Shown here in pieces: positions 16,176-38,718 of a stretch of 64,000 nt of DNA; position 1 is the first letter of the stretch; each line of letters opens with the position of its first letter. The DNA is from Herpetosiphon geysericola (GTDB taxonomy: Bacteria; Chloroflexota; Chloroflexia; Chloroflexales; Herpetosiphonaceae). The translations under genes were made by a program, and so were the position numbers. The notes under the pieces were generated by a model. The model saw only the letters and a list, made by a program, of their open reading frames with translations, did no database searches and was not told the DNA's origin. The stretch is taken from NCBI RefSeq assembly GCF_001306135.1, contig NZ_LGKP01000040.1, positions 152,726 to 216,725 of the forward strand, given 5' to 3'.

Positions 16176-16186
16176 GCGAGGCACCC

Positions 16187-17950: not shown

Positions 17951-17956
17951 GTCCGG

Positions 17957-17992
17957 CAAGAGAACCGCTTCATTAATGAGGCGGTTCTCTTG
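17957..17992 (+). terminator. hairpin terminator at the end of the tail operon
   Basis: Perfect 12-bp inverted repeat CAAGAGAACCGC ... GCGGTTCTCTTG with a 12-nt loop. Confidence 0.5.
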
Positions 17993-21727: not shown

Positions 21728-21787
21728 CATCTCTATTGAAAGGTAATATACTGCGCAAGCAAGGAAATAATATACATTAGTTATCTT

Positions 21788-21831
21788 CTACACCACAAGC
21801 GCATCCCACAATCTAACCTATTGTGGTGTAG
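21788..21831. terminator. bidirectional hairpin between convergent genes
   Basis: 11-bp inverted repeat CTACACCACAA ... TTGTGGTGTAG (21788-21798 and 21821-21831). Confidence 0.45.
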
Positions 21832-21899
21832 AGGATAATATTTGGCTTAATCAAATTAGCGAATTCAAAGTTGACTATTTTATACATTTAATATCTTGC

Positions 21900-22838
21900 T
21901 TATGCCAAAACCTTTTCAAACCATCCTCCCCGGAAAAAACGATGCGGCTGCTGAATTCGTTGGCCTTGCTTCGTATACTGCGTTGTCCAGATCGGCGCAA
22001 GCACGCCCGATTCGCGCACGTCGTCGATGGTCGCAATGAGGAGTTGACTGCCGGGCCAGCCGATTTCCCATGCATCGAGCACAGCGCGTTTCCGCCGTTC
22101 GTTCGGCACCGTAAAAGCAATCAATGGCCAGCTATAGCGCCCTTCCCAATAGCGTGATCGATATAATTCACGATACGAGTTGGCTTTGCCAGTAATGATA
22201 CTCAGTTCCTCGGTGCCCCGATCGATTTCAATGGCATAGAGTTGATCGATCTGTCCTGGCTGTTGGCCAAGACCGAGCCATGGATACAACGATGACCGCT
22301 CACAATCGGGCAGTGTCGCATCAGCCCAGCGCCGCACCACGATAATGCCGTCGGCGCGTGGCCGCGCGGTTGGACCCAAATCCATCTCAATATAACTACT
22401 CATCCCCACAATTCCAGGAACATACGGTAGCGATTGAATCAAGCTGGTGATGACCTCGGCATATTCAATCTGGTGCTCAGCTTGATGTTGGGGATTGAAC
22501 ATCGTTGGAGCCAATCGTTCGCTCCCTTCTTCCAACAACGGAAAGGCCTGCTTGACGATTTCCCAGCCAAGCGGGGTGAGGCTATACAACCGGCCATGGC
22601 GCGTCCAGCCAATTGCACCACGCGGATCATAGCCATGCGATTGAAAGTGCTCACAGTAGGTCAGCAGCTTGGCATCAACCAGTTTGGCCAACGTGCGATT
22701 GACCGTTTGAATCGTCACGGTAAACGGATGGCCCCAGGCCGTGCGGAGGTGGCGCGAGAGCAATCGCCCGAGCCGAGCAATGAGTACAAGCACGTGCATC
22801 TCGATGGGATTCAAGCCAACGGGTGTATGGATAGTCAT
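21900..22838 (-). CDS. winged-HTH protein with replication-relaxation (Replic_Relax, PD-(D/E)xK-clan)-like C-terminal region
   Basis: N-terminal wHTH-like segment (MHVLVLIARLGRLLSRHLRTAW...VNRTLAKLVDAKLL). C-terminal YAIEIDRGTE and ADGIIVV acidic motifs. Assignment from memory of family motifs, not verified. Confidence 0.4.
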   Translation of the reverse strand: MTIHTPVGLNPIEMHVLVLIARLGRLLSRHLRTAWGHPFTVTIQTVNRTLAKLVDAKLLTYCEHFQSHGYDPRGAIGWTRHGRLYSLTPLGWEIVKQAFPLLEEGSERLAPTMFNPQHQAEHQIEYAEVITSLIQSLPYVPGIVGMSSYIEMDLGPTARPRADGIIVVRRWADATLPDCERSSLYPWLGLGQQPGQIDQLYAIEIDRGTEELSIITGKANSYRELYRSRYWEGRYSWPLIAFTVPNERRKRAVLDAWEIGWPGSQLLIATIDDVRESGVLAPIWTTQYTKQGQRIQQPHRFFRGGWFEKVLA

Positions 22839-22859
22839 TCAATCACTCCTCACGACAAA

Positions 22860-23855
22860 TTACGAAAGAACAAGCTTTTCTAAAAGTTTTTTCTTCTCAA
22901 TTATTTCTAATTGTCGCTGTTGGAGGTGTACACGAATAGCATTTTGGGTCGATGAAGCAACGAAGGCTCGATAATATACGGATACACCAAACATTATTCC
23001 ACTACCAAATAAGAAAGCAATAATACTGATGGTAAGAACGCTAGTTACTCCAACTGGTGATTGCTCTACAATACTGAAAAAAGAGAATATTTTATCGCCT
23101 GCGGCAAGAACACCAGCACCCATGGAAACAAGAATGCCCACAAGCGCAGCAACCGTCATTATTAGGCTAATGATGCTCACACTATGCATACGAGTTTCTC
23201 TTCGCTGAATGAGGAGATCTAAGGTTTGTTCCAACTGTATTGTCTCTATCGGATTCAATATTTCATTTAATTCGTCCTGCAAAAAAGTATAAATTTTTTC
23301 AACTGAATAATTATTTTTATTACTATTCATTTCAGCAATAGTAACAAAAATAAAATCCATACTTGTTATAAAGTATATACATATACTAATAAGTAATGAG
23401 ACTATAAAACTTGATATTTCTATAAATATCAAACTAAATATTATAGGATTCATATTTTGAATGTTTATCAAAGAAAAACTGATAGACATTATGTAGAATA
23501 AATATAACTCTATAAGAAGAAATGATTTTATTGCTAATGATCTTTTTATAAAAGAGAAAATATGGTCTCTATAGTGTATAGGCTTGAATACCTTAAAGAA
23601 AGCTATTCCTATAGACACAAAGAAAAAGGTACCCACAAGTATATCTATATTAAAATTCTTGAAAATAGCTACAAATGAGGTTTGACGTGCTATTGAAAAT
23701 GCCGAGAGTATCATTGCAATTACAAAAATCAAGGTATATATAATAATGAAATTACGCCCCTGACGAATTCCTCCTTTCCAGTCCTCATACATTTTTGAAA
23801 TACCTTTTTCTACTTCGTTTTGAAACTGAATACAGAGTTCAAGATTTGTCGCCAT
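22860..23855 (-). CDS. polytopic membrane protein (about 7 TM), AT-rich moron of unknown function
   Basis: Seven strongly hydrophobic 20-25-aa segments with a about 50-aa soluble loop in the middle. About 30% GC. No catalytic motif. Confidence 0.6.
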   Translation of the reverse strand: MATNLELCIQFQNEVEKGISKMYEDWKGGIRQGRNFIIIYTLIFVIAMILSAFSIARQTSFVAIFKNFNIDILVGTFFFVSIGIAFFKVFKPIHYRDHIFSFIKRSLAIKSFLLIELYLFYIMSISFSLINIQNMNPIIFSLIFIEISSFIVSLLISICIYFITSMDFIFVTIAEMNSNKNNYSVEKIYTFLQDELNEILNPIETIQLEQTLDLLIQRRETRMHSVSIISLIMTVAALVGILVSMGAGVLAAGDKIFSFFSIVEQSPVGVTSVLTISIIAFLFGSGIMFGVSVYYRAFVASSTQNAIRVHLQQRQLEIIEKKKLLEKLVLS

Positions 23856-24166
23856 AACGTCCTGCCCTTCATAAAACTATAGCGATCATACGCATGCGCT
23901 AATACATCGTTACACGCTTAATAGGTCTATCCTCTATTCAAAGCATCAAAGGTAGCTGCGCAGCCTGTTAAAGAATGTCGGCACGACCAAATAGCCAGTT
24001 TAGGCCATTCTAGTGGGCTATTTTCTACGTGGCGGTTTGTAGACCATCTGAACGCGATATGAATACGGTTTGAACACGATATGAATGGGCAAGAATGCCG
24101 CAAACATGCCGATCACTAAATGGCCGTGGCAGCGATATTAAGCAAGCCACGGCCTCGAATACTCGA

Positions 24167-24706
24167 TTAAAGTCCACTGAGCCAGTATTCATCGGTTCGC
24201 ACTGGTTCAGGTGGAACAGGACGCTGCCAGTCAGCTAACCGCCTAGCAAGAACACCATCACCCTCACCCATATATTCCCACCACGACGGCGCTCTAGGGG
24301 TGGAAAAGGCATGAATAAACACGGGGATGTGCGGTAAAACGAGCGCTGGCGGAACGGCCATGAGCGCAACCGTCCACAACTGGTGGGATTGTCCGTTAGC
24401 ATCGACGACCGTTTCCGCAAGCAAGGTTTCGAGCGGCGTACTTTGGGGCACACGCAGATACAAACCAAGAAACGGGCAGACCAGCACACTACACAGTGCG
24501 CCGCACAGATAACGCGGTGGTTGCTGGACACGAATCAGAGCAGCATCCAGTTGCTGAAAAAGCGTCATCGTGGCGTGTTGGAGCAAGGGTGCAAGGTCGT
24601 GGGGCTGCATGCTGGGTGGCGACAGCGTAATTTGCACAGTATGCTGGCCGTTATTGGGCAAAGCCAACGTTTCGGTCAAGGTAATGGTCATGGGTATCGT
24701 GGTCAT
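24167..24706 (-). CDS. hypothetical protein
   Basis: GC-rich ORF downstream of and overlapping the FtsK-like gene. Start is uncertain (24706 or 24742). Confidence 0.4.
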   Translation of the reverse strand: MTTIPMTITLTETLALPNNGQHTVQITLSPPSMQPHDLAPLLQHATMTLFQQLDAALIRVQQPPRYLCGALCSVLVCPFLGLYLRVPQSTPLETLLAETVVDANGQSHQLWTVALMAVPPALVLPHIPVFIHAFSTPRAPSWWEYMGEGDGVLARRLADWQRPVPPEPVRTDEYWLSGL

Positions 24707-24725
24707 GAGCGAGATTCCTTTCTGC

Positions 24726-25835
24726 TTAAGCACCGAGATCAAGCACCTGCTTGACCTGGCGAATTTGAGTTAAACGGCGCGTGCGTTTGCCACCCAAGCT
24801 GTCAATAATTTCGTTGCCACTTTTGCCTGCAAGAACGAGCTTGGTAATCAGGATGACATCGGTCAGCATGGCCTCGTCAACCAGGTTCTCATCGCTAGTT
24901 CCCATGGTTCCAAGCGGGGAATCACCGGCTATATCGCCCATGGAATCGGGAACTTGCCAGAGGCGGCGCGGGTCAATCGGGCGAGTGGACAACATCCACG
25001 CGGGTTCACGATCGCACCAAAACCATTGACAATTCCATTCAATCGCTGCGGGCCACGGAGCGAGCAACGGCGACTTCATTTTCTCCAACGCTCGATCGCC
25101 AATGGCAATCCACAGCAGGTTATCGAGCGCTTCGCTATCGCCTTCAATGCCCAGCGGTTTGACCAAGGTGGTTTGGGTTACCAGAATCAGATGCATCCGA
25201 TACTTAGCTGCTTGGCGCAGCATTTCGCCCACAAAGCGTTGGGCCACCGGCACTTTGGGTTTCGCTGCCGAGCCATCTTCACCATGCACCTTGCTCATCA
25301 CATCGGGCGCTTCTTCCAACACCACCGTGATGGGGTCAAACGTTTCGACACCCGTGGCCGCAGCGGCCTTGCGTCGCCCCAGTTCGGCGAGCAGTGCTTT
25401 CATCACGCGATTGATCGCAGGATAGTCATAGACTTGCGGCAAACCACCATAGTCATTGGGTCGCGCATGGGAATTGAGAATCACCAGCTGGTGGCCCTCC
25501 AGGGCGCGTAAATAGGTCAACGCCATGCTCAGCACCGACTTACCTTGCCGCGAAGGGCCAGCAATCCCGATATGCGGACGCTTGGCCAAGGTGTCGAGCA
25601 ACATGGGCCACGAATAGGTTGGCAAGTGTGCAACATCGGGTTCAACTGGTTCATCAACCACCGGTCGCGCCACGACCACTGTCCGCGCCGCAGCCGCAGA
25701 ACGCGGGGCAGCGGGGGCAGCGGCAGGGCGGCGTTCGCTGGCCGGTGTGCGCGCGTGCCACCAGAGAAACGTCCCAACAAAACTACACGCAAAGAGAAAA
25801 ATCAGCGGATATAGCCAAGGCGAATTAATATCCAT
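24726..25835 (-). CDS. FtsK/SpoIIIE-family DNA translocase (TraB/Tra-like of conjugative elements)
   Basis: N-terminal TM helix. Walker A GIAGPSRQGKS. Walker B VVLEEAPD. FtsK signature RMHLILVTQ. RBS AGGAG before the ATG. Confidence 0.7.
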   Translation of the reverse strand: MDINSPWLYPLIFLFACSFVGTFLWWHARTPASERRPAAAPAAPRSAAAARTVVVARPVVDEPVEPDVAHLPTYSWPMLLDTLAKRPHIGIAGPSRQGKSVLSMALTYLRALEGHQLVILNSHARPNDYGGLPQVYDYPAINRVMKALLAELGRRKAAAATGVETFDPITVVLEEAPDVMSKVHGEDGSAAKPKVPVAQRFVGEMLRQAAKYRMHLILVTQTTLVKPLGIEGDSEALDNLLWIAIGDRALEKMKSPLLAPWPAAIEWNCQWFWCDREPAWMLSTRPIDPRRLWQVPDSMGDIAGDSPLGTMGTSDENLVDEAMLTDVILITKLVLAGKSGNEIIDSLGGKRTRRLTQIRQVKQVLDLGA

Positions 25836-26274
25836 GGGGATGCTCCTGTGGAGTGCGGCCAAAGGCCAAATATTCTGGCCACCGCGCCGAGACAATACCA
25901 AGGATGAGACCGGCTCCCCATGCCAGGGCAATGGCTGGCATGCCAGATGTCAGTTTGTAGGCGATGGGATAAAACAACCATTCGCACCACTTGTAGGCCG
26001 TAATCATGGCATCGGGAGCGAGGAAACACCCATAGCCCCACGCGGTTCGGCGCAAGGTATAGAGTTGGCCAAGGAAAAGAAAGAGCGCCAGCCCAAGACC
26101 CGCGAGGATGCCACGATAATCGCGAATACCCCAGAGCCAGTGTTGAAAGTCACTCAGCGTCGAGACCGTGGTGACAATGCTATTGCCCCAGCCCAACGTG
26201 CAGGCGATTCCTTTGACCAATTTGCGACTCGGTTCAAGGCGGCGAAGATCAAATAACACATTCGATGTGGTCAT
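25825..26274 (-). CDS. small membrane protein (Spd-like spread protein candidate)
   Basis: 149 aa with 3-4 TM segments. Overlaps the start of the FtsK-like gene by 11 nt, so operon partner. Confidence 0.45.
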   Translation of the reverse strand: MTTSNVLFDLRRLEPSRKLVKGIACTLGWGNSIVTTVSTLSDFQHWLWGIRDYRGILAGLGLALFLFLGQLYTLRRTAWGYGCFLAPDAMITAYKWCEWLFYPIAYKLTSGMPAIALAWGAGLILGIVSARWPEYLAFGRTPQEHPHGY

Positions 26275-26386
26275 CGTGTTCTCCTTTGGTATACTAGCGC
26301 TGCATCACTTTCGTGTTCTCCGGTGATGCACGCCGCCGATGCTGATTTCATCGGCGGTTTGTGTGTCAAAAGAAGCGTGGTGGTTC

Positions 26387-26780
26387 CTAGACATCTTGAT
26401 ACTCGGGATCAGGCGGCAAATCGAGCGAATCGGGCAGCGGAACCGGAGTTTGTTCAACTGGTGGTGTACCACGGTTCAACCCATGGTCAACAACGGGTGC
26501 ACTGCGGTTCAACCCATGGTCAACACTAGGGGAACGACTGTGCAACGCGTGTTCAACAGGTTTCATCAGGACTGCGAGTAAGGTGTCCCGCACGACGTGA
26601 TCATCAAGCCGCGCAACGCTGGCCAACGCATCGGCAGTGAACAACTGGATGTCTTTGCCACAGGTATGCAGACCGATAATCACGAGGGCGCGGAGCACGG
26701 CAGACTCGTTGCCTAGGCTGGCAATCATCGCACTGAGCACGCTCGAGCTGCGGGTCGTCAGTCGTTCATCAAAACTCATT
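26387..26780 (-). CDS. hypothetical protein downstream of parM (possible partition adaptor)
   Basis: 131-aa ORF whose start overlaps the parM stop (ATGA-type coupling). Contains a protein-level repeat VDHGLNR x2 encoded by DNA direct repeats. Confidence 0.35.
26472..26525. repeat. two 21-bp direct repeats CGGTTCAACCCATGGTCAACA, plus a third GTTCAAC-containing copy at 26551-26557
   Basis: Exact copies at 26472-26492 and 26505-26525. Confidence 0.6.
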
Positions 26781-27765
26781 GGCCAAACTCCTCGTAGCGC
26801 CGCGCACGGCGGGCATAACCACGCGCGATCGCGGTTTGCGGATTGGGGGCAACGATCGTTTGGCGAAAACGCTGTTGAATCGCCTGAACCAGCATGGGCA
26901 TTTCCGCACCACCCCCAGCCACGATAATCGCCGCCAGCTTCGCACCGCTGCCCCACGCCCGAACTAGCGCATCGGCGACTTGGTGGCCATTGGCCAACCA
27001 TGGCCGATCCCAGCCGGTTGGCAGATCGCATTCCTCACCCGCGACCTCCACATAGCCAGCACGCACCGCGCGATCGACTTCGTGTAAGGTCAGATCAAGG
27101 TTGTAACGCCCACTAATTTTGGTTTGCAGCTGCTGGAGTGGATTGGCGCTTCCGAGTTCAAAGCTAATCGCACTTTCCGGCACAACATTCATCGCTTGCA
27201 CAATGCAGGCATCGACGGTGTTATGGCCCAAGTCAATCACGCCAACGCGACTCAGCTCATAGCCGCTGCGGGCAATGGCTCCGCTCGGGTCGAGCAAGAC
27301 CCCATACAACGCGCCGAGCGGTTCACTAATCACCCGAATACCGGTTTTGAGCGTCGTCCCGTGGTAATACTGGGTCACAACCGCATCCCGCAGCCGCGAC
27401 CCCAAGGCCACCGCTAAGTCGCGTTCGCCGGACCAGGCGGCGGGCAGTCCGGTAACACATGCACCACCGCAGGGCTGCTTGAGGCGCTGTAAGGCTCCTT
27501 TGACGAGCGCAGGGATAATGTGGCGATCGTAGAGTCGTTGTTGCGAGCGGAGCGAGATCGGTGCGGGATGCAGCAAGGCATCCTCGCCCGTCCACCACAG
27601 CGTGCCGTGGACTTCAACCGTGGGCACATCGTGCAGATTGCCATCGGTGCTACTGGCCGGAGCCACCAGCGCAGGAAAGATAATGGTTTCTTCGTGATCG
27701 CCGGTATTGATCGTATATTTCACATAGCCATGGCCAATATTGGCCCCATGGGCAATAGCAGTCAT
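26776..27765 (-). CDS. parM: ParM/StbA-family actin-like segregation ATPase
   Basis: 329 aa. Actin-fold phosphate-binding motifs IDLGHNTVD and IIVAGGGAE. RBS GAGGAG before the ATG at 27765. Confidence 0.7.
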   Translation of the reverse strand: MTAIAHGANIGHGYVKYTINTGDHEETIIFPALVAPASSTDGNLHDVPTVEVHGTLWWTGEDALLHPAPISLRSQQRLYDRHIIPALVKGALQRLKQPCGGACVTGLPAAWSGERDLAVALGSRLRDAVVTQYYHGTTLKTGIRVISEPLGALYGVLLDPSGAIARSGYELSRVGVIDLGHNTVDACIVQAMNVVPESAISFELGSANPLQQLQTKISGRYNLDLTLHEVDRAVRAGYVEVAGEECDLPTGWDRPWLANGHQVADALVRAWGSGAKLAAIIVAGGGAEMPMLVQAIQQRFRQTIVAPNPQTAIARGYARRARRYEEFGQ

Positions 27766-27841
27766 AGAACACTCCTCTACGATGGATGGGCGTTGAATCC
27801 CATCCATCAAGAACACATCAGTGAATCGACCCGACGCAGCC

Positions 27842-28981
27842 TTAAGCAACCGATTGGATGGCACTGGTGGTGAGATCATGCGTCCACCAGTGATCAAGGT
27901 GCGTCGCAATCCACGACCGCAAATCCACGCCACACTGCACGGCCATCGTGCCAAAGTCGTGGGGATCGGGCCGCATGCGGGCAACCTCTTTGCCTTTGAA
28001 AATATCGAGCCAATACGCAGCGGCTTTATCACCGGCTGCATCGGCATCGGTTGCAATGAAGAGTGGCTGGCAGAGGCTGTACTGAACGAGCCAGCGAAAG
28101 CCACGACCTTGGGTGGTTCCAATCGCTGCCACCCCGCTGAGCGGCTGGCCATGGCGTTCAAATTGGCCAAGGGCTTGTTGGGCCACCAACGCATCGATGG
28201 GGCCTTCCACCAGAATGCCAGGGCGACCAGCGTGGAAGGTATCGATGCCATACGGCACATTGCTGCTTCCAGCAATCGTCACGTATTTCATACCCTCATC
28301 GCGGGGCGTGGTTTGGCGAATCGAGAGCTTCCAGAGCTGGCCATCACAAAACCATGGGATGACATAGCCAGCGGGCAACCACACGCCATCTTTATCGGGA
28401 TCAGTCAATCCCCACTTGTGCAGTGGACGGTAGAGCGGCTTGGGGTTATAGCCAATTGCAGCGGTGCGAAGCGTGTGATCGGTCAGGCCACGCTGGTGTA
28501 AGTAGCTGCGTGGCGAGGACTGACTATCCCCATCCTTCCACAACATATCAACCGAGTAGCCAAGGAAACTCAGAGCGGCCTGCTGCCACGTCGCTGAGGG
28601 CGGCTCACAGGCATTCGGTGGCTCAGGATCAGGGACTGCTGCTGTAAGCGAAGTCGATTGGGTCAGCGTCAGCCCCAGTGTTGTAAAGACCCCTTTGATC
28701 AAGTTCTTCCAATCAGGATGATCCTTGGTAGGAATGCTGCCGTGGTCGCGCAGGAAAACAAAATCAACATCAGAGGCCCATGGCTGGCCATCGCGACAAC
28801 TGCGACACCACCAGCGGCCACCATTGCTATCCCCATGTGGTTGCACCCGAAAGCGATCCTTGCCACCACAGAGCGGACAGGCTCCAGCCCATTCACCGCC
28901 ATTGGTCGCGGCCACTTTGCGCAGGGCGGTGCGCTGGCCAACCAACGAAAGAAACGCATCGCCCGAAAGATGTTCAATCAT
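27842..28981 (-). CDS. DNA primase (CHC2 zinc finger plus Toprim, DnaG-like)
   Basis: CPLCGG...RFRV...WWCRSC zinc ribbon. Toprim ILVEGPIDAL and IATDADAAGD. RBS GGAGG. Confidence 0.8.
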   Translation of the reverse strand: MIEHLSGDAFLSLVGQRTALRKVAATNGGEWAGACPLCGGKDRFRVQPHGDSNGGRWWCRSCRDGQPWASDVDFVFLRDHGSIPTKDHPDWKNLIKGVFTTLGLTLTQSTSLTAAVPDPEPPNACEPPSATWQQAALSFLGYSVDMLWKDGDSQSSPRSYLHQRGLTDHTLRTAAIGYNPKPLYRPLHKWGLTDPDKDGVWLPAGYVIPWFCDGQLWKLSIRQTTPRDEGMKYVTIAGSSNVPYGIDTFHAGRPGILVEGPIDALVAQQALGQFERHGQPLSGVAAIGTTQGRGFRWLVQYSLCQPLFIATDADAAGDKAAAYWLDIFKGKEVARMRPDPHDFGTMAVQCGVDLRSWIATHLDHWWTHDLTTSAIQSVA

Positions 28982-28996
28982 TGAAACCTCCCAAGA

Positions 28997-29267
28997 GAAG
29001 TGTCATGAAGTGTCATAGAAGTGTCATGCTGCCTAAACTGTCGGTTTAGGGCTTTCCAATGGGATAAAACGGAGAAGTGTCATAGTGTCATAAGTGTCAT
29101 GTATTTTTTCAGTCGTGTGGGTTCTCTCCAGCCTCGCGTACATGTTCCATATTAAATTGGACATGTCCCCTTATGACACTATGACACTTCTCAAGAAAGG
29201 CGCTCTGGGAGTGGATTTTTAGCGTCATAAACCGTTTATGACACTTCATGACACTTCTGACACTTCT
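28997..29267. repeat. iteron array, putative replication origin
   Basis: Six direct copies of (GA)AGTGTCAT at 28997-29100 and five inverted copies ATGACAC(TTC) at 29173-29267. They flank a 70-bp central region. Confidence 0.6.
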
Positions 29268-30862
29268 CATGCGCTATATCTCCACAATTGCATCGTTCGA
29301 CCATTGGCGGCTTTGGTCTCAAGCACGTCAATTTGGCCAGCGAGGCGTAAGACTTCTAAGATTTCGGTGATTTCTTTTTTGGATTGATTGGTCTGGCGAC
29401 ACAGATCGCGCACCGTCAATCCCGAAAGCGACTCTTTCAGAACGGCCAGCAGCTTATCGCCCAGCTTGGTTTCTTCACTCTGAATCCCATCGCTCCAAAT
29501 GCGGTGCAAGTCGCTGCGCCAGCGCTCGACAATCGTGATCGCACGTTTGAGATGATCGAGCTGCATCACCACCGGTAATTCGGGGCAGTCCATCGCGGCC
29601 AGAATCATGGCCACCCGCAGGACGTGCCCAGGGAAACGGGCATAACTGGCATAGAGCGTGTCAGGTAGCCCATTGTTCGGCAGATCAAAGCGCAACACCT
29701 TGTCATAGCGCTTCCACAACGTCATCACGCCAGGCGCGAGCCGAATCGAACTGGGCGGATGCTCGTTATAAATCCGCACAAAGCGCTTGATATTCTCTTC
29801 CGGCACATCATCGACCAATTCGGCCTCTGGCTTCGGAAAGAGCGCATCGAGCGCCTGCAAGTCCTGAATCAAGCGTTCAGGCATCACCAGCTCGTCAGGA
29901 AACTCGGCATAGCATGGTGGGGCATCGGGAATCAGAATCGCGAAGCGACTCCACAACCCTTCGTCCCACAGCTTTTCGCTGCGCAAGTGATCTTCGATAT
30001 TCTTGGGCGTGGTTGCGCCCAGAAACGAGAGACTGGCATCGCGAATCGTGGTGCGGCCATGGGTGATCGTTTCATGGGCCAAATACTCAGGGTTATCAAA
30101 CAACTTGAGTAACAGCGAGAGCAGCTCGGCCATATACTCTTTTTTCATATCGCTGAACAAGAACCCTGCTTCGTCGAGTAGCCATGCCCGTTGAGCCGCT
30201 TGGGCACGGGCAAGCAGCCATTGCTCACGGTCATAATCACTGTAGCTGTCCAGCTTATCGGGAATGACGGTCGAAAACTGCTGAAGCAGCGACTGGGGCG
30301 TGCTTTTGTCGGGTAAGAGCAAGTGGCCAAGGCCAGCGCGCCGTAGCACCCGCTCGACAACCTTCATCGCGGTCGATTTGGCATAGCGCCCTGGTGGGGC
30401 AACAAATAGCGCATAAATATTCGGGTAATAGTAAGTTTCACCAATTTGGAGATACAACCGCCGCGCGATCACGGTGGCGGCAAGGAAGAGACCCGCCGCC
30501 TCATGGAAAATCGGTGGCGTGACCGGACTCGCTTGGCTGGCATAGTCGATAAATGTATCAAGCCACTGCCCACATACGCCCTGCTGCCGGATGGTTTTCG
30601 TAAGTTCACTCGGCAGCGGCGGCATAGTTCGTAAGACGGTTGGGGCAGGCTGGTCAACGAGCAAGGCCGCCACCCGACTATCCACCCGAATCGCGGTTTC
30701 CAGTGCGGTTTGCACGGCAGGCGCACCGCCATGCTCAAAGGCATACACTAAACTTTGCATCATGGCTAACCATTCGCCCCAATCACGGGTCAGGTCAATC
30801 GTCTGGCCTGCGAGCAACTGCTGCAGCGCAGTGCGCACCTGCACATAGAGTGGAGTTGTCAT
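29267..30862 (-). CDS. DUF3987-like replicative helicase/loader protein with C-terminal wHTH
   Basis: Degenerate Walker A APPGRYAKST. Walker B LLDEAGF. About 530 aa. Downstream of the integrase, as in many tRNA-integrated islands. Confidence 0.55.
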   Translation of the reverse strand: MTTPLYVQVRTALQQLLAGQTIDLTRDWGEWLAMMQSLVYAFEHGGAPAVQTALETAIRVDSRVAALLVDQPAPTVLRTMPPLPSELTKTIRQQGVCGQWLDTFIDYASQASPVTPPIFHEAAGLFLAATVIARRLYLQIGETYYYPNIYALFVAPPGRYAKSTAMKVVERVLRRAGLGHLLLPDKSTPQSLLQQFSTVIPDKLDSYSDYDREQWLLARAQAAQRAWLLDEAGFLFSDMKKEYMAELLSLLLKLFDNPEYLAHETITHGRTTIRDASLSFLGATTPKNIEDHLRSEKLWDEGLWSRFAILIPDAPPCYAEFPDELVMPERLIQDLQALDALFPKPEAELVDDVPEENIKRFVRIYNEHPPSSIRLAPGVMTLWKRYDKVLRFDLPNNGLPDTLYASYARFPGHVLRVAMILAAMDCPELPVVMQLDHLKRAITIVERWRSDLHRIWSDGIQSEETKLGDKLLAVLKESLSGLTVRDLCRQTNQSKKEITEILEVLRLAGQIDVLETKAANGRTMQLWRYSA

Positions 30863-30972
30863 GTATCTATCCTCGGTGCTGCGGGAGGATACTCACCACA
30901 GCACACTACACTTACAAAACTGGGAAGGACTAGGATGCTGCCCCAATCACCGGCGGCGATTGGGGCACCTGA

Positions 30973-31278
30973 TTACGTCGACTCTGGCGCTTTGTCTTCG
31001 CCTTGCGCTGCATCAATCAAGAGGCGTTGAATTCGTTCCTGGTTGGCCTCGATCTCTGCGAGCAGCAGGGCGATCTTGGTCAGGATAAGTTCGACGGCTT
31101 CGGGATTGTTCAAGTGGTAGCGTTGATGCACCACTTGGTTGAGCAACTCTTTGGCTCGGATAGCTTGCTTCGACGATTGCGCGGCGTTCGCCAGCGCTTC
31201 GAGTCGATGTTCGTTCACCACGTTCGGCCAACGCAGTCGTCGCCGTGGCATCCACATCCCTTTCTTGGTGGTCGCCAT
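30973..31278 (-). CDS. small helical protein (possible excisionase/regulator)
   Basis: 101-aa ORF with sensible helical sequence. Overlaps the tail of the next ORF in another frame. Confidence 0.35.
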   Translation of the reverse strand: MATTKKGMWMPRRRLRWPNVVNEHRLEALANAAQSSKQAIRAKELLNQVVHQRYHLNNPEAVELILTKIALLLAEIEANQERIQRLLIDAAQGEDKAPEST

Positions 31279-31582
31279 TCACGAGGTCAAAGACAACCGC
31301 ACGGGTTTGCTGGCGACGTTTGATCATGCGCCAGACTTGCCACGTAATAATGACCCCACCACCAATGCCAAAGCTGGCGATGATCTGCTGCTCATACTGG
31401 GGCCAGCTGGCGTTCGGCGTAAGGCGGATGGCGATCCCTGCGGCAGTCACGCACAACAGGGTTCCGACAACCACTTCAATCCACGTCCAATCTGGTTCCA
31501 AGTAGTGCTTGTAATGCTCAAGCATCACGGCATACAGCATCGTGGCCATGGCCAAACCGATACCAATATTGATGGGCATAGA
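31013..31582 (-). CDS. small membrane protein (3' extent uncertain)
   Basis: ATG at 31582. Three hydrophobic helices in the first about 100 aa. The C-terminal about 80 aa of this frame look like low-complexity out-of-frame translation of the 30973-31278 ORF. Confidence 0.35.
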   Translation of the reverse strand, partial: SMPINIGIGLAMATMLYAVMLEHYKHYLEPDWTWIEVVVGTLLCVTAAGIAIRLTPNASWPQYEQQIIASFGIGGGVIITWQVWRMIKRRQQTRAVVFDLVNGDHQERDVDATATTALAERGERTSTRSAGERRAIVEASYPSQRVAQPSGASTLPLEQSRSRRTYPDQDRPAARRDRGQPGTNSTPLD

Positions 31583-31675
31583 TCCCCCTATCAGCAGGTT
31601 TTTTGTCAAAAACCTGCTGACTTTCTGTACACTTTTTCCCTTGTTTCTACCGGGATAGGTGGGCATACTGGAGGC

Positions 31676-32539
31676 TTATAAGCATGACTCCACCTTCTCG
31701 AGGAGGTTCACGCCTTGCCGATTTTGGGTCGCCTCATGGGATGAGAGTTGTGCATAGTGCAGAGACATTTGAATCGTTTCATGGCCCATCAATACCCGTA
31801 GACTTTCTGCATCAAGGCCTTTCTTGATCAGTTCGCGGGCGAAGGTGGCACGAAAGGAGTGAATCAAACGCCGCACATCATTGCGGATTTCCGCGTCGGA
31901 GGCTAAGCGATCGAAGCTCTGGTGTACGCCGCTAATCGTCAGCGTTTTTTGCTGGCGATGGCTGACAAACAACGCAGGGTTCGTATCCGTCCGACTGGCG
32001 ATGTAGGTTCGAAGGACTTCTTGGGTCACGGATGAAATCCAGATATATCGATCCTTGCTGCCTTTGCCAAGAATCATGGCGCAGCCTTCCGAGTCAAAGC
32101 TGGTCCGACGGAGTTGAATCAGTTCACTGACCCGAACGCCGGTATCCAGTAAGACACAGAGCATGGCTTTTTCACGAAGCTCGGCAACCAGCAGGAGGCG
32201 CTTAATTTGATCCATCGTGTAATGGGCAGGTAAGCGCTTGGGTAATCGGGGTTTGAGTTTATCGGTATTTACTGGCTGAATATAGCCTTCTTCAGCAAGC
32301 CAGCGCACGAGGATGAGTGCATCGTTGAGATAGCTATAGTGGCTGGCAATGCTTAAGTTTTGTTGGGCTAAGTACGCACTGTAGGCCCGCAATAACGCCC
32401 GACTGAGCACCTGATTCGGTTGCTCAAGCACCCAAGCGCCAAAGCGTCCTAACCGAATTCGGTAGGTGGTGATGGTTGCAGGGCTGCGGCGTTCGGCGAC
32501 TTTTGCGGACAAATATTCTTCAATCCATTGGCTAATCAT
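31676..32539 (-). CDS. int: tyrosine recombinase/integrase (XerC/D-like)
   Basis: Catalytic residues R (LLDTGVRVSEL), K, HxxR (HSFRATF), H..Y (LMGHETIQMSLHY). Lies 0.9 kb from the att duplicate. Confidence 0.85.
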   Translation of the reverse strand: MISQWIEEYLSAKVAERRSPATITTYRIRLGRFGAWVLEQPNQVLSRALLRAYSAYLAQQNLSIASHYSYLNDALILVRWLAEEGYIQPVNTDKLKPRLPKRLPAHYTMDQIKRLLLVAELREKAMLCVLLDTGVRVSELIQLRRTSFDSEGCAMILGKGSKDRYIWISSVTQEVLRTYIASRTDTNPALFVSHRQQKTLTISGVHQSFDRLASDAEIRNDVRRLIHSFRATFARELIKKGLDAESLRVLMGHETIQMSLHYAQLSSHEATQNRQGVNLLEKVESCL

Positions 32540-33460
32540 ACGAAATGACCTCGATCTATCGCGTTATCCCCGAAGGGATAGCGTGTGCGTTCGCAAATAC
32601 TCGACTCGAGGCCGCGCGGAGCGGAAAGAGTATGTGATGGGATACCTCTGCAGGTGGTGCTAAAGGGGTATCTCATTACAGGTCTTCAGACACACTGCGT
32701 TAAGGGGTGCTTGCACAACCAGCAATGGCGGTCGCCATTTTTTGGGTATAGCAAAGCAACCTACACGTTTGGTATTGGCAAATGGCTTTGGCTAGGTTGA
32801 TCTTCCAGAATTGGAAGCAACACAAAGCCAACCGTCATTCACCAATCGGTGTGAGGAAGACAGGAAACACACTGAGTCAAGGTCATTGGTATAACACTCA
32901 TCCATCGTAACCTTGCTTTGTGTCGATGGAGAGTGATGATCGTCAATCTCCGAACGATCATCTTTATGTATTAGGAAATGCCGGAGCGCGTTAATGGTTG
33001 AAGGCCGCAAGCGGCGTTCAGGAATAGGGAAGTCGGTGGGCAGGATTCCCAAGACGACATATGGTAAGCTTCGTGGATTCAATGATCCTGAATGCCCATG
33101 AAGCGTGGTAGATAAGCAGCGTGTCTTTGCATCAGTCCTGCTTATCTAACAAGTGGCGTGTCTAGCATCAACCACTTGTATTGGGTTTCTAGCAACGAGT
33201 GCATGCCAGATCCAAGGGAAGGCTATTGCTTTAATAAAGCACCCGATAACAATAGCCATGTTGGAAAGCTCGATGTGTCGAGTCAAGTTCGGGGTTAGCG
33301 TACCATATGCCAACCATGCAGAACGTTAACGCTGTATAAGAAAATGCTTTTGTAGTGACAGTGCATTGCAGCAATGTGGTGTTGCTGGCGAGCAGAAGCC
33401 AATAATCCTCCTTCAAAGCAGCCTGGTGAAACAGGGTGCTTGCTTTGCATTTTAGGCAAA

Positions 33461-33506
33461 CCTGTTAATCAATGGGTCCTAGGTTCGAGTCCTAGTCAGG
33501 GAGCCA
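33461..33506 (+). other. 46-nt duplicate of tRNA-Asn 3' half (anticodon loop to CCA), candidate attR core
   Basis: CTGTTAATCA...GTCCTAGGTTCGAGTCCTAGTCAGGGAGCCA is identical over 31 nt (and nearly over 46) to the 3' half of the tRNA gene 21 bp downstream. No 5' half is present. Confidence 0.6.
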
Positions 33507-33527
33507 CTTCTTTTTACAACTTGATAT

Positions 33528-33603
33528 TCCCTGATAGCTCAGTTGGTAGAGCGGTTGACTGTTAATCAGCATGTCCTAGGTTCGAGTCCTAGTCAGGGAG
33601 CCA
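33528..33603 (+). tRNA. tRNA-Asn (GTT)
   Basis: Cloverleaf with anticodon loop CTGTTAA. Close to the E. coli tRNA-Asn sequence. CCA encoded. Confidence 0.85.
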
Positions 33604-33608
33604 AAAAG

Positions 33609-33644
33609 ATCAACGCCCGCCTGAAATTTCAGCTGGGCGTTGAT
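33609..33644 (+). terminator. hairpin downstream of tRNA-Asn
   Basis: ATCAACGCCC ... GGGCGTTGAT 10-bp inverted repeat. Confidence 0.45.
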
Positions 33645-33836
33645 GATTTAAACCCATATGGTATCACTTAATAACTTCGCCACATCGCTGAACACCAATT
33701 AGCCAGCTGCCGATTGCGGTACACTATAACCCAGCATTATGCCCAATGATCAAAGATGCTAGGTTTTGCTGACGAGCGCTTAAAACCCTTGCTTCGCTGC
33801 ATGGGCAATCGTCGGCTCGTACCAAGAAAGGATGTT

Positions 33837-34754
33837 ATGAAGCAGGCTGTTGGTGATTCAGCTATTTCTACGCCGCCGCATCAAGCCGACCCATCGGCTC
33901 GCCGTCAACGTTGGTTTGGGATTGCGGCCATGCTGCTTTCGGCAACCGCCTTTGGCTGGCTCGGCGTATTTGCGCGGCTGGCCTACCAGGCTGGAGCCGA
34001 GCCGATTACGGTGTTATGTATGCGGTTTAGTATCGCCGCACTTGTTATGTTTGGGATTCTGCACGTGCGGGGCCAACGGCTGCCCCGTGGGAAAGTCCTC
34101 ATTGGATTAATCCTCTTGGGAGGGATTGGCTATGTAGCTCAATCCATGGCCTATTTTGTGGCGCTTACCATGGCCTCGGCTGGCTTAGTCGCAGTCTTGC
34201 TGTATTTGTATCCAGGGCTTGTTACCTTATTGGCAGTCGTCTTTTTCAAGGAACGCCTGACTCCACGCATGGTTCTGGCCTTAGTGCTGGCCCTCATAGG
34301 CTCGGCTTTGGCAATTGGCCCAATTGGCGGCGGCAAGCCACTCGGCATCATTCTCGCCATCAGTGGAGCGGTGATCTATGCCATTTATATCACCGCTGGG
34401 AGCCAAATTACCGCTCGCGCTGGAGCAATCCCTTCATCGACCGTGATTATGAGTGCAGCAGCGGTCGTATATACAGGCATTATGCTGGCTCGCGGCCCGG
34501 TTTGGCCAGCGACCACAGGCGGTTGGCTGGCAATTGTGGGCATTGCTCTTGTTTCAACGGTGTTGGCAATTGTGATGTTCTTTGTGGGGATGGAACGGAT
34601 TGGCCCAACCGCCGCCTCGACCATCTCGGCGTTGGAGCCGTTAGTCTCGGTTGGGGCGGCAGTTGTTGTGCTCCACGAGCCAATTAGCATTTGGCAACTT
34701 GCTGGTGGCCTGCTGATACTCACGGCAGTTGTGTTGTTAGCCCGAAGTTCATAG
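33837..34754 (+). CDS. EamA/DMT-family transporter
   Basis: Ten predicted TM helices with two EamA-like halves. GIGYVAQSMAYFVAL-type motifs. Confidence 0.75.
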   Translation: MKQAVGDSAISTPPHQADPSARRQRWFGIAAMLLSATAFGWLGVFARLAYQAGAEPITVLCMRFSIAALVMFGILHVRGQRLPRGKVLIGLILLGGIGYVAQSMAYFVALTMASAGLVAVLLYLYPGLVTLLAVVFFKERLTPRMVLALVLALIGSALAIGPIGGGKPLGIILAISGAVIYAIYITAGSQITARAGAIPSSTVIMSAAAVVYTGIMLARGPVWPATTGGWLAIVGIALVSTVLAIVMFFVGMERIGPTAASTISALEPLVSVGAAVVVLHEPISIWQLAGGLLILTAVVLLARSS

Positions 34755-34879
34755 CGAGCACTGCTCCATACCTAAACCTTCAAGTATCAATGTTCTCAAT
34801 AGGTTAAATGGCGAGCGATCGATAGCGAACCATCGATCGCTCTAGCAGTCATTTTAGAGCAGCATTATGCGCTAAGCTG

Positions 34880-36106
34880 CTACTGCACGTCACGCCCGAC
34901 AAGCGGCAAATAGAGTTTCCAACTTGGCGGCGTTGTGGTTGGCGATGTGATGGTTACGGTTGTTGTTGGAGTGCTGGTTGGAGTGGTGGTAGTGGGCGTG
35001 GTTGATGGTGGAGTGCTGGTTGGAGTGGTGGTGGTTGGAGTCACGCTTGGTGGAGTGGTTGCTGTTGGCGTGATGGTTGCTGTCGGCGTAATTGTTACAA
35101 TTGGCGTAATCGTTGCCGTTGGCGTGACGGTTGCTGTAATCGTTGCTGTTGGCGTAATTGTCACAATTGGCGTGACCGTTGCCGTTGGTGTAACAGTCGC
35201 CGTTGGTGTAACCGTTGCGGTTGGCGTGACGGTTGCGGTTGGTGTAATCGTTGCCGTTGGCGTGACGGTTGCCGTCGGTATGATCGTTGCGCTTGGCGTG
35301 ACGGTTGCCGTTGGCACAGGAATGTCAGCAAACAAGATCATGTATAAGGCGCTATTGTCTCCAACTTGGCGTAAATCGTTTGCCAGGAAATTGAAGTCGG
35401 TTTGCCCATTAACATTGCGATAATAGCCATAAGTTGGAGCGCCTAACGGTACAGAACCAGCAGCAAAGGCAGGAGCACCTGTACCGCCACGAATTGCTGT
35501 AGTCAGGTTCGTCGTATCAACAAGGCCAGCACCGCTATCGCCACGAATATTAATCGTCACACCATGATTGCTGAGGCCACTCAGGGTCAGCGGGTTGGTC
35601 AACGGAATTGAGATATCGTAAAGTCCTCCCGCTACGAGGCTGCGACTCCCAAAATCAAAGCTTAGTAAGCCGCCAACAGGGCTTGTAAACACTGTTGTAT
35701 TAGTAGCATTGAAACTATCCCAGAATTGAATCCGAACTTGGATATTGGTATAGGTAGTTGTGGAGAGCGAAACCAACCCAAACTGCAATGCAGTAATATC
35801 GCTTGCTGTTGCCAAATTGAATGGTTGCCCCATATAGGTATGGGGTGCGTTTGCAAAAGTAATAAAATCATCTGCCCCAGTGATTGTATCGAATATTGGA
35901 GTGATTACCTGCGGCAAACGAGCATTCGTCAGTAACGTGCCACTAGGCTTGAGTTGGCCCAGTGATGTGTCGAGCGCAGCTTCAGGCAAGCCTTGAGCTT
36001 GACGTGTAGCACTGGTTGTCGTTGGCGAAACTGCCAAGCTGGCAAGCAACGCTAACAGACACCCAACAGCACTCAGAATTCCCAACTGGCGATTGATTCG
36101 ATCCAT
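34880..36106 (-). CDS. secreted protein with C-terminal Thr/Pro-rich tandem repeats
   Basis: N-terminal signal/TM (LGILSAVGCLLALLASLAV). C-terminal (TATVTP)n and (TTTPTS)n repeats. RBS AGGAGGT before the ATG at 36106. Confidence 0.55.
   Translation of the reverse strand: MDRINRQLGILSAVGCLLALLASLAVSPTTTSATRQAQGLPEAALDTSLGQLKPSGTLLTNARLPQVITPIFDTITGADDFITFANAPHTYMGQPFNLATASDITALQFGLVSLSTTTYTNIQVRIQFWDSFNATNTTVFTSPVGGLLSFDFGSRSLVAGGLYDISIPLTNPLTLSGLSNHGVTINIRGDSGAGLVDTTNLTTAIRGGTGAPAFAAGSVPLGAPTYGYYRNVNGQTDFNFLANDLRQVGDNSALYMILFADIPVPTATVTPSATIIPTATVTPTATITPTATVTPTATVTPTATVTPTATVTPIVTITPTATITATVTPTATITPIVTITPTATITPTATTPPSVTPTTTTPTSTPPSTTPTTTTPTSTPTTTVTITSPTTTPPSWKLYLPLVGRDVQ
34930..35330. repeat. 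18-bp-periodic tandem repeats (GGCGTGACGGTTGCGGTT-like) encoding the TP-rich linker
   Basis: Directly visible periodic DNA. Confidence 0.6.
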
Positions 36107-36322
36107 GGATACCTCCTGCATGTTACCTAGCTTCAACTGAAGCCACGTAACTAATTAGCAATGATGAGGCCATAGAGTCAATAGCATATGCGCAGCATAG
36201 ACCATAAGTCCTTCTAGGAGGGCATCAATCCAACCAATTGGGCTGCTCGCGCTGAAGGTAAATCGATTCAAAATGATGATATGGTGCAATTGCAGTAGCC
36301 TTTACGATTACAATTTACCTAG

Positions 36323-36351
36323 TTGACATCCTATGTATGCCCCAATATAGT
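36323..36351 (+). promoter_or_regulatory. sigma70 consensus promoter for the OLD-family gene
   Basis: TTGACA (36323-36328), 17-bp spacer, TATAGT (36346-36351). 36 bp upstream of the ATG. Confidence 0.4.
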
Positions 36352-36387
36352 TAATAGTCAACATCCTTCAAGCTTTGGGGTAAATTT

Positions 36388-38169
36388 ATGTATCAAATTG
36401 AAACCTTATATTTGCCAGATTCAATCAAAAGCAGTTATCAAAATGTCGAAAGTCAGCCACTTACTCAACTCGATAGCCTTTCAAGGGTTAATATTTTAGT
36501 TGGCGAAAATAATGCAGGTAAAAGTCGGTTTATGCGGTTATTGGCCGAAGAGTCTAATTTTAAACTAAAACATACTAAAATTAATGAATTCAACTACAAA
36601 ATTGAACAAGAAATTAATAGATTAATTGATATATTTGATATTCATGAAGTTGATAGAATTGAGGCAATAACAAGGATTAATATAGAGAATTGTATTCATT
36701 ATCTGAAGGAAATAAATAGTATTTATACAAATCCGAAATATACAACATACAATAATATTTTTAATATTATTGAGACCATAAAAAACGATAATAGAATATC
36801 TTCTATTGCAAATATAATTATAAATCTACTTAATCAAGTACAGATTAAGTTTAATAAAAATATATATATACCTACTCTTCGTAGTTTACGCCCTTTAGAT
36901 AGTGAATATACGGATTTTTATCAAAATCAAACTATTGAGAGTTATTTTAAATCCGCAATTCATAAACCAGAAATTTATACAGGTTTAGGGATATATGCCA
37001 AACTAAGAATTTATCTACTTGGGGATAATGTAAAACGTAAAAAAATCAGAGAATATCAAGAATTTATTTCACATACTTTATTCGAAGACAAAGAAGTAAC
37101 TTTGATTCCGAGAGATGAAGAAAAACATATTTTTGTAAAAATTGGTAATGAAAAAGAACGACCAATTTATGATCTTGGTGATGGAATTCAATCAGCAATC
37201 ATTTTAACCTTTTTGCCATTTGTGAGCCTTGAAAATTGTATTTTCTTTATCGAAGAGCCAGAGCTTTTTCTACACCCAAGTATGCAGCGCAAAATTCTGG
37301 AGTTCTATCACTCGTTGGATCGTCATTTATTTTTTATGACAACTCACTCGAATCACTTGCTTGATATTACGATTGATATTCCTGAGATTTCAATCTATAA
37401 CTTTCGAAAATCACTTACTAGTAGTGATGATGATGAAACACCTCATTTCATTGTTGAAAATGTTGATAACAATCAAACTAGTTCATTAGAATTATTGGGA
37501 GTACGAAATTCATCAGTCTTATTAGTCAATGCCACAATCTGGGTTGAAGGAATAACCGACCGTTGGTATTTACGTGAGATGCTCCAAATGTATATGGAGA
37601 GTCAAAAAGATTTGAAACAGTTTGTTGAAGATATGCATTATATGTTTGTTGAGTATGGCGGTGGAAATATTACTCATTTCTCATTTGTAGATATGGAAGA
37701 TAAACTTATTACAATAGAACGACTATGTGCGAAAGCCTTTGTTATCATTGACCAAGATGGCGATGCTAAATTAAAACGTAAAGAAGAGCTTAAAGCTAAA
37801 CTTGGCGATACTTTACTTATTTTACCTTGTCGGGAAATTGAAAATAGCCTACCATCCGAGGTCATTCGCTCAGTTGTAATTGAATATGAGACATCTATAC
37901 AAAACCCAAACCCCGAAACAAATTCTTTTGTGTATGAGGATTACCAAAATGAATCGTTAGGGGAATTTATCGAAGATCATGTTATAAAAGGTGAGAAACA
38001 TCGTCGAGGTTCTTATAAAGCTGATTCAGGAACTATTACCGATAAACTTGGTTTTTGTACAAAAGCCTTAGCATATTTGAAAAATCTTACATTCGATCAA
38101 CTACCTTCTACAATTCAAAAAGAAATAGAGGGCATATATAAGTTTATTGCAAAGCTGAATCCTAGCTAA
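36388..38169 (+). CDS. OLD-family nuclease (N-terminal ABC-type ATPase plus C-terminal Toprim), standalone
   Basis: Walker A GENNAGKS. ABC signature/Walker B region IEEPELFLHP. H-loop TTHSNH. Toprim WVEGITDRW ... FVIIDQDGD. About 30% GC. Confidence 0.7.
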   Translation: MYQIETLYLPDSIKSSYQNVESQPLTQLDSLSRVNILVGENNAGKSRFMRLLAEESNFKLKHTKINEFNYKIEQEINRLIDIFDIHEVDRIEAITRINIENCIHYLKEINSIYTNPKYTTYNNIFNIIETIKNDNRISSIANIIINLLNQVQIKFNKNIYIPTLRSLRPLDSEYTDFYQNQTIESYFKSAIHKPEIYTGLGIYAKLRIYLLGDNVKRKKIREYQEFISHTLFEDKEVTLIPRDEEKHIFVKIGNEKERPIYDLGDGIQSAIILTFLPFVSLENCIFFIEEPELFLHPSMQRKILEFYHSLDRHLFFMTTHSNHLLDITIDIPEISIYNFRKSLTSSDDDETPHFIVENVDNNQTSSLELLGVRNSSVLLVNATIWVEGITDRWYLREMLQMYMESQKDLKQFVEDMHYMFVEYGGGNITHFSFVDMEDKLITIERLCAKAFVIIDQDGDAKLKRKEELKAKLGDTLLILPCREIENSLPSEVIRSVVIEYETSIQNPNPETNSFVYEDYQNESLGEFIEDHVIKGEKHRRGSYKADSGTITDKLGFCTKALAYLKNLTFDQLPSTIQKEIEGIYKFIAKLNPS

Positions 38170-38181
38170 AGGTCTCACACT

Positions 38182-38718
38182 ATGCAGCAACCTACGTGGC
38201 AGATTAATACTTATCAACAAAGATGGCATGTGCGTTGGCACCCAGCCGATAGCGAGCCAGCAGGCAAAGCTCATGGCTCAGCTGGTATTTGCCTCACGCC
38301 TGAACGCCACATTGTAGTGGTGAGCCAAAATGGGCGTGATTGGGATGTACCAGCTGGCCGCAGCGAGGCGGGCGAATCGTGGGCAGCAACCTTGCAGCGT
38401 GAGGTGGCCGAAGAAGCATGTGCGATAGTTCAAAGTGCCAGCTTATTGGGCTTTTGCCAAAGCCAATGTTTGGACGGGGCAGAACAAGGGCTAATCTTAG
38501 TGCGCGCATTTTGGTTGGCCCACGTTACAATCCAAGCATGGCAGCCTCAATTCGAAATGATCGAACGCCGGATTATTGCTCCAAGCCAAATTTGGAGCTA
38601 CCTACCGCAGGCCTATCTACCAATCTATCGCCATGTATTGCAACTCGCCGCAGAATTCAGCTCGGCAACACAACAATCGCGAAGCTTATTTTCTAGCCCC
38701 GAAGCCCACAAAGGATAG
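38182..38718 (+). CDS. NUDIX hydrolase
   Basis: Nudix box GRSEAGESWAATLQREVAEEAC. Host-like GC. Confidence 0.7.
   Translation: MQQPTWQINTYQQRWHVRWHPADSEPAGKAHGSAGICLTPERHIVVVSQNGRDWDVPAGRSEAGESWAATLQREVAEEACAIVQSASLLGFCQSQCLDGAEQGLILVRAFWLAHVTIQAWQPQFEMIERRIIAPSQIWSYLPQAYLPIYRHVLQLAAEFSSATQQSRSLFSSPEAHKG

Follow-up and report, generated by a model that had tools for sequence, protein, structure and literature searches.

The truncated copy of a tRNA-Asn gene at positions 33462-33506 of the window, by which we mean the whole 64,000-nt stretch of Herpetosiphon geysericola DNA analyzed here, is with a probability of about 80% the attR of a temperate tailed phage of ~42-49 kb that resides in the first of two tandem tRNA-Asn genes. 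The crossover would have occurred in the anticodon loop of this first gene (A1), and the second gene (A2) would have been displaced. A first-pass annotation of the window had taken the truncated copy as the signature of integration into a tRNA gene, and this interpretation is borne out, as the displaced 3' part of tRNA-Asn ends an integrase-bearing island that lies on its left.

The window contains one intact tRNA-Asn(GTT) gene at 33528-33603 (+), which was identified by ARAGORN and scored 68.6 bits with Rfam. Upstream of it lies the truncated copy, which comprises 45 nt and corresponds to nt 32-76 of tRNA-Asn. Compared with the adjacent gene, it consists of 10 identical nucleotides (CTGTTAATCA), four mismatches at positions 42-45 and 31 identical nucleotides that extend to the CCA end. 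The copy had been described as 46 nt long; it is real, but base 33461 is mismatched and the length has to be reduced by one. The distance of 21 bp to the intact gene was given correctly (spacer 33507-33527), and a 5' half is indeed absent beside the fragment, since the 25-nt 5' end of the intact gene occurs only once in the window, even when up to three mismatches are allowed. The 31-mer was found exactly twice in the window, while none was expected from shuffled sequences. When the fragment was analyzed alone, it was recognized as a 5'-truncated tRNA (Rfam tRNA model positions 31-71, 22 bits, E 0.004).

A scan of species-representative genomes with the 31-mer yielded matches only in Herpetosiphon and in one Chloroflexia MAG, and each matching locus contained two copies of the 31-mer, 95-97 bp apart. 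The loci without a prophage belong to Herpetosiphon sp. NSE202 (L003), H. giganteus (L009) and the Chloroflexia MAG (L005), while those with a prophage are from H. aurantiacus DSM 785 (attL, L008; attR, L007) and H. llansteffanensis (attL, L006; attR, L004). Each of the prophage-free genomes has one locus with two intact tandem tRNA-Asn genes, as determined with ARAGORN and from the raw sequences. The order at these loci is a promoter (TTGACA-17-TATACT), A1, a spacer of 20-21 nt, A2, a terminator-like hairpin and the EamA flank. The first-pass annotation had named a tandem arrangement of tRNA-Asn genes in the host as one possible origin of the geometry, and the intact pairs, 20-21 bp apart, confirm this for the host lineage; it had also pointed to island-free relatives as the proper comparison, and in these A1, the spacer and A2 are followed directly by the host flank. 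In DSM 785 and H. llansteffanensis two loci each were found, of which the upstream one has both genes intact and the downstream one consists of a fragment and one intact gene.

The two genes of the pair are distinct isodecoders that differ at positions 26, 27 and 42-45. Their anticodon stems are ATTGA/TCAAT in A1 and GTTGA/TCAGC in A2, and they have the anticodon loop CTGTTAA in common. The fragment in the window is identical to nt 32-76 of A1 at all 45 positions (A1 of NSE202, H. giganteus and the attL loci of H. llansteffanensis and DSM 785), and it differs from A2 by four mismatches at positions 42-45. The intact gene in the window matches A2 at 76 of 76 positions in seven related loci. The fragment is therefore derived from A1 and the adjacent gene is A2, the second gene of the original host pair, which explains the four mismatches that had received no comment in the annotation.

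Two further RNA predictions in this region were rejected. An 87-nt 'tRNA-Lys(ttt)' called by ARAGORN at 33420-33506 is spurious: it reuses the T arm and the acceptor strand of the fragment, has no Rfam tRNA match at E values up to 10, is not called by ARAGORN at the attR loci of H. llansteffanensis and DSM 785, and has a fold z-score of -1.2. A YrlA or Y RNA-like match (RF02553) at 33451-33583 reached 38.1 bits, below the gathering threshold of 69, and is made up of the T arm of the fragment, its acceptor strand paired with the 5' end of A2, and the D arm of A2. Any tandem tRNA genes with matching acceptor stems would yield such a match, and in their arrangement such genes resemble the permuted tRNA-like module of Y RNAs.

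To the right of A2, the window contains host core DNA with genes for an EamA transporter and SecA, proB/proA and the suf operon. The EamA-family transporter gene (33756-34754, +; Pfam EamA, E 1.6e-37) represents the conserved right flank of the host and is found at the same position after the tRNA-Asn pair in NSE202, the Chloroflexia MAG, H. giganteus and at the attR of DSM 785. Next to it lies an ORF of 418 aa (34880-36136, -) without a family match, which is kept beside EamA in several Herpetosiphon genomes; staggered BLAST matches to relatives (35057-35314) point to internal repeats in this protein. A segment with a GC content of 0.31 is inserted at 36264-38181 and contains an ORF (36388-38169, +) for an AAA ATPase similar to AriA, Old and GajA (PADLOC AriA, E 2e-19). 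This insertion is absent from NSE202 and H. giganteus, where homology jumps from ~36250 to 38182, and present in DSM 785; it probably represents a defence islet of one gene within the host flank. A second tRNA cluster is located at 59737-59996 (-) and consists of Leu(GAG), Val(TAC) and Phe(GAA) with spacings of 19 and 2 nt; no fragment or integrase was associated with it. At the attachment site of H. llansteffanensis, the left host flank is nearest to NSE202 (92-97%), and the right hairpin and flank are those of H. giganteus (60/60). Such mosaic host flanks suggest recombination at the locus.

The island to the left of the fragment occupies 409-33461 of the window, with its left end beyond the window, and was delimited by PHROGs and Pfam matches, GC content and an identity of 86-89% to the prophages of DSM 785 and H. 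llansteffanensis. PHROGs and Pfam matches identified genes for an endolysin (1738-2490), a large terminase (3377-4915), a portal (4611-6302), a major head protein (6880-7731), a long tail protein of 1143 aa (11369-14800), a minor tail protein, a ParM-like partition protein (26776-28275) and two primase-type proteins (27842-28981 and 29267-30862). The GC content is 0.59 in 410-18000 and 0.55 in 24000-33461, compared with 0.50 in the host part (38200-64000). These genes, together with that of the integrase, and the difference in GC content are the reason why the island is read as a phage. Within it, a block at 18000-24000 has a GC content of only 0.37 and contains ORFs at 18494-21727 (+), 21900-22838 (-) and 22860-23855 (-). 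The first of these encodes a Type IIG restriction-modification enzyme of 1077 aa (PADLOC, E 1.7e-250; Pfam Type_ISP_C and N6_Mtase), and the block also encodes a Replic_Relax-domain protein and an unknown protein of 331 aa; it has the appearance of defence cargo or of a small nested element.

The similarity to the two related prophages extends across the junction. Positions 29068-36179 of the window are 89% identical to the attR locus of H. llansteffanensis, and positions 29517-33606 are 88.8% identical to that of DSM 785. The IMG/VR contig UViG_2508501111_000002 is the DSM 785 prophage itself, being 100% identical to the latter locus, and aligns with window positions 409-12529 and 23941-32539 at 86% identity. 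No phage of Herpetosiphon was found among the deposited phage records searched, where the best integrase match was 34% identical. The one paper found that analyzes prophages of a Herpetosiphon genome reports only a different, incomplete prophage of 16 kb (PMC6210107).

Homology to the DSM 785 prophage starts abruptly at position 409. The first 409 bp, which are not homologous, have a GC content of 0.25 and contain the end of an ORF (stop at 373); in DSM 785, a gene for a Calx-beta/CBM-like protein is found instead. The matching breakpoint in DSM 785 lies 9.8 kb from attL, and these phages differ from one another in the left part of the element. Positions 1-409 appear to represent a slot for variable cargo that precedes the lysis genes, and their drop in GC content was therefore rejected as an island boundary. 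A left end inside the window was likewise rejected, as no second copy of the core was found and a comparison of the first 1 kb with the right end yielded no direct repeat longer than 9 nt. There is also no partner copy of the core in the 33.4 kb of the window left of the fragment. Since related prophages at the same site have this partner 41.9 and 49.4 kb upstream, the repeat partner is expected to the left of the window, as had been predicted; the sequence CTGTTAATCAATGGGTCC…GGGAGCCA would mark its locus. Because the leftmost 409 bp do not match the prophage of DSM 785, the island may be rearranged on its left side.

The integrase gene had been placed 0.9 kb to the left of the fragment, which is correct: the ORF at 31676-32539 (-) starts 922 bp from it. 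It encodes a tyrosine integrase of 287 aa (Pfam PF00589, E 7.7e-25; PHROG integrase, E 2e-34) with a simple Xer-like architecture, that is, a SAM-like N-terminal domain and a catalytic domain without an arm-binding domain. The R-H-R-H-Y region is conserved, and the protein scores far below the cut-offs of the NCBIfam models for XerA, XerC and XerD and of the integron model. Across the three lysogens, the integrases are 97-98% identical at the amino acid level, while the DNA is only 86-89% identical, a difference that indicates strong purifying selection and selection for function.

The 922 bp between the integrase gene and the fragment (32540-33461) contain no convincing ORF, neither for an excisionase nor for any other protein, and represent the P arm of the phage, which ends in GCATTTTAGGCAAAC. 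This arm is kept right up to the junction in H. llansteffanensis and DSM 785, and the sequence to the left of A1 nt 32 is conserved at attR as …GCATTTTAGGC[A/G]AAC. The P-arm sequence left of the loop (GCAAAC) is unlike an inverted half-site of the anticodon stem, and the missing resemblance is unusual for an integrase without an arm-binding domain. Two short inverted repeats are located in this arm directly beside the putative crossover, at 33423-33458: CCTG-N6-CAGG and TTTGC-ATTTTAG-GCAAA. The latter shows a compensatory change in DSM 785 (TTCGC/GCGAA) among the three sequences compared, and the repeats may be protein-binding sites or form a hairpin.

Integrases with 42-53% identity encoded on other contigs were also found beside tRNA sequences. 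Each of them adjoins a lone tRNA 3' fragment whose first bases are those of the anticodon loop, and a complete tRNA is absent from these contigs (L021-L025). On L024 and L025, a tRNA-Lys(CTT) fragment is located just past the stop codon of int. L021-L023 show the geometry of the window: ~460 nt upstream of int, the opposite strand carries a tRNA-Met(CAT)-like fragment. L024 and L025 diverge immediately 5' of CTCTTAA. Since phage genes flank int on both sides, the fragment on L024 is probably a free, unintegrated attP. For the phage of the window, no unintegrated attP was detected in the viral and metagenome contigs searched, neither by the junction between P arm and core nor by a phage-type left end, and attR was the same on all of the many metagenome contigs that encode the DSM 785 integrase.

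The anatomy of the two ends, the origins of the hairpins and the exact limit of homology emerge from the alignment of relatives with and without the prophage. At attL of DSM 785 and H. llansteffanensis, A1 and A2 are both intact and followed by a phage-type hairpin, while attR of both consists of the fragment, the spacer, A2 and a host-type hairpin. With A1 nt 32 at attL and the start of the attR fragment taken as its limits, the element has a length of 41,890 bp in DSM 785 and of 49,406 bp in H. llansteffanensis. From A1 nt 32 to the end of A2, 143 alignment columns are near-invariant in attR, attL and empty sites, with differences in the spacer only; homologous spacers of 20-21 nt are present at all loci, occupied or empty. 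Immediately 5' of CTGTTAA, attR departs from attL and the empty sites, which carry the 5' half of A1 and the promoter. The loop copy at 33462-33468 (+) in the window is thus the left limit of phage-host homology and the likely overlap region.

The hairpin segment after A2 (S4; 33604-33650, + in the window) distinguishes phage from host DNA. The two attL copies match each other at 56 of 60 positions and run on into shared phage sequence that includes, in DSM 785, a Cro/CI-like HTH gene just inside attL. In contrast, S4 at attR of H. llansteffanensis is identical to that of prophage-free H. giganteus (60/60), and S4 of the window matches prophage-free NSE202 and the Chloroflexia MAG better (45/60) than the phage-borne copies at the two attL loci (39/60). 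It follows from these identities and the continuation into shared phage sequence that the attL hairpin is phage-borne and the attR hairpin the host original. The phage hairpin resembles the native hairpin of H. aurantiacus (52-54/60), so that the repeat in DSM 785 extends over ~200 bp at 96.5% identity. The annotation had equated the core of the direct repeat with the 46-nt copy. This core does contain the 3' half of A1, but the anatomy of attL and attR argues for a direct repeat of at least 143 bp that includes the whole adjacent gene. In the relatives, the insertion parts the host promoter and the 5' half of A1 from the host copies of the A1 3' half, A2 and the terminator. The phage there carries the 3' half of A1, the spacer, the whole of A2 and the hairpin, by which a two-gene operon is restored at attL, and the same is predicted for the phage of the window.

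This anatomy bears on whether the host once had more than two genes. An attL with two intact genes and an attR with one gene beside a fragment would also result if the host had possessed four tandem genes (A1-A2-A1-A2), or at least three, with the island in the third gene and only a 45-nt fragment carried by the phage. We regard this as highly improbable, as all three prophage-free sites have two genes only, and as the attL hairpins, which are contiguous with shared phage sequence, match at 56/60 in two lysogens whose host hairpins match at only 43/60.

The fragment could conceivably also be left over from an older or second element in a tandem array, or stem from a local duplication that has nothing to do with the neighbouring prophage. 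Tandem islands at one tDNA are known, with 125 tandem arrays in the Islander survey (PMC4383910), and the annotation had likewise considered a second element sharing the site. This suggestion found no support: the window has one integrase and one fragment only, and the right flank, with EamA, SecA, proBA and suf, is conserved host DNA. Furthermore, the junction between P arm and fragment agrees at every base among the three lysogens, which belong to different species, and is not found at the prophage-free sites, and the complete DSM 785 genome contains the core tRNA 3' end only at the two prophage ends. We therefore give this origin next to no credence.

Where within the tandem pair the strands were exchanged can be judged from the limit of homology and from the spacers. 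The same prophage at the same site could have entered by a crossover in the loop of A2, which has the same sequence as that of A1; in that case, the 3' half of A1, the spacer and the 5' half of A2 at attR would have come from the phage, with the fragment as a passenger relic in its genome. Such a crossover would provide symmetric anticodon-stem half-sites in phage and host, which suits a simple Xer-like recombinase, and DSM 785 and H. llansteffanensis share one attR spacer, as close phages should, but differ in the attL spacer. The host spacers differ by only one or two positions, which makes the argument from polymorphism weak; a SNP in the DSM 785 spacer (…GATAT at attL, …GATAA at attR) and the other spacer polymorphisms are compatible with a crossover in either loop. 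An exchange in A2 leaves unexplained why phage-host homology stops exactly at A1 nt 32, and the anticodon-loop fragments beside the related integrases directly adjoin unrelated phage sequence. Overall, a crossover in A2 seems unlikely. Strand exchange in the 7-nt anticodon loop of A1 is instead suggested by three lines of evidence: homology starts exactly at A1 nt 32, the anticodon loop is the commonest sublocation for tRNA-targeting integrases, and the relatives of the integrase adjoin fragments that start at the anticodon loop. We rate this crossover well above one in A2, since only a crossover in A1 explains the sharp homology limit.

A model for integration by a crossover in A1 can be put together as follows. 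The target would be the only detected tRNA-Asn operon of the host, consisting of the promoter, A1, the 21-nt spacer, A2 and the terminator hairpin. The integrase would recombine the phage site with the CTGTTAA anticodon loop of A1. To the right of its own site, the phage would carry A1 nt 32-76, the spacer, a complete A2 and a terminator hairpin, that is, everything that the insertion cuts off. After integration, the host promoter and the 5' half of A1 would be joined at attL to this phage-borne segment, giving two promoter-driven intact genes, while the 3' half of A1, the spacer, A2 and the terminator of the host would be pushed ~42-49 kb downstream, behind the integrase gene and without the operon promoter. 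The displaced host segment would correspond to 33462-33650 in the window, and attL of the window genome is probably like that of its relatives. No sigma-70-like promoter was detected within 1 kb upstream of the displaced A1 fragment and A2. Cut off from the operon promoter by the prophage, A2 of the window has probably lost its normal transcription and would be poorly expressed. With a restored phage copy and a displaced A2, lysogens contain three intact tRNA-Asn genes and one fragment.

It is possible, though rather doubtful, that the attachment region grew to this size by capturing host DNA. An ancestral phage would have targeted the anticodon loop of a single tRNA-Asn gene and been excised through the identical loop of the upstream gene as a secondary site, thereby gaining the 3' half of A1, the spacer, A2 and an H. 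aurantiacus-like hairpin and shifting its target to A1. If so, lysogens would gain a third intact tRNA-Asn gene, and a second phage could integrate at the intact loop of the displaced gene.

Taken together, the junction is of a standard type for tRNA-targeting prophages of the anticodon-loop class and otherwise textbook biology. With it, the right end of a Herpetosiphon prophage is located to single-base precision (33461/33462). The small Xer-like integrase and the tRNA-Asn anticodon loop form a likely integrase/attB pair and thus a candidate integration tool for these predatory Chloroflexi. Although it stands beside the fragment, the intact tRNA gene is here a part of the displaced host DNA and should not be mistaken for the regenerated target; a program that finds islands by matching each fragment to its nearest cognate gene would err at such a site.

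The arrangement resembles the anticodon-loop ('A') islands of Islander (Williams; PMC4383910), a survey in which 2083 islands have anticodon-centred sites: a tyrosine integrase is present, the split tRNA gene is restored by the copy of the element, and the far end is recognizable by a displaced fragment that extends from the anticodon loop to the 3' end. Among the criteria of Islander, an intact cognate tDNA in the same orientation lies upstream in DSM 785 (41.9 kb) and H. llansteffanensis (49.4 kb), the tyrosine integrase inside the island is not of the Xer or integron type, the target is uninterrupted in NSE202, the Chloroflexia MAG and H. giganteus, and the fragment covers nt 32-76 with 45/45 identity to A1. 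In contrast to these islands, the target here is the first gene of a two-gene tRNA operon, the restored segment includes a second tRNA gene and a hairpin, and the integrase gene is located at the end with the displaced fragment, not beside the regenerated gene.

The Haemophilus phage HP1 integrates into tRNA-Leu (PMC3448106, PMC12540744). As here, the crossover takes place in a tRNA gene inside a tRNA cluster. In the work of Hauser and Scocca from 1990 and 1992, attP and attB of HP1 reportedly share ~180 bp that include downstream tRNA sequence, so that the cluster stays intact. An arrangement in which the element carries the downstream tRNA gene together with the 3' part of the target is also present in the relatives of the window's phage and probably in this phage itself. 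HP1 differs in being a P2-like myovirus of another host phylum with a heterobivalent integrase, and its downstream gene is a different tRNA species, whereas here it is a second isodecoder of the same tRNA. Like Mx8, the phage described here is a temperate phage that uses one of a tandem pair of tRNA genes with identical anticodons. [quoted passage not shown] Finally, P2-like prophages of the 186 type have common cores of 50-110 nt that extend beyond the tRNA gene (PMC3448106), whereas the extension found here amounts to 143 to ~200 bp and includes a complete extra tRNA gene.
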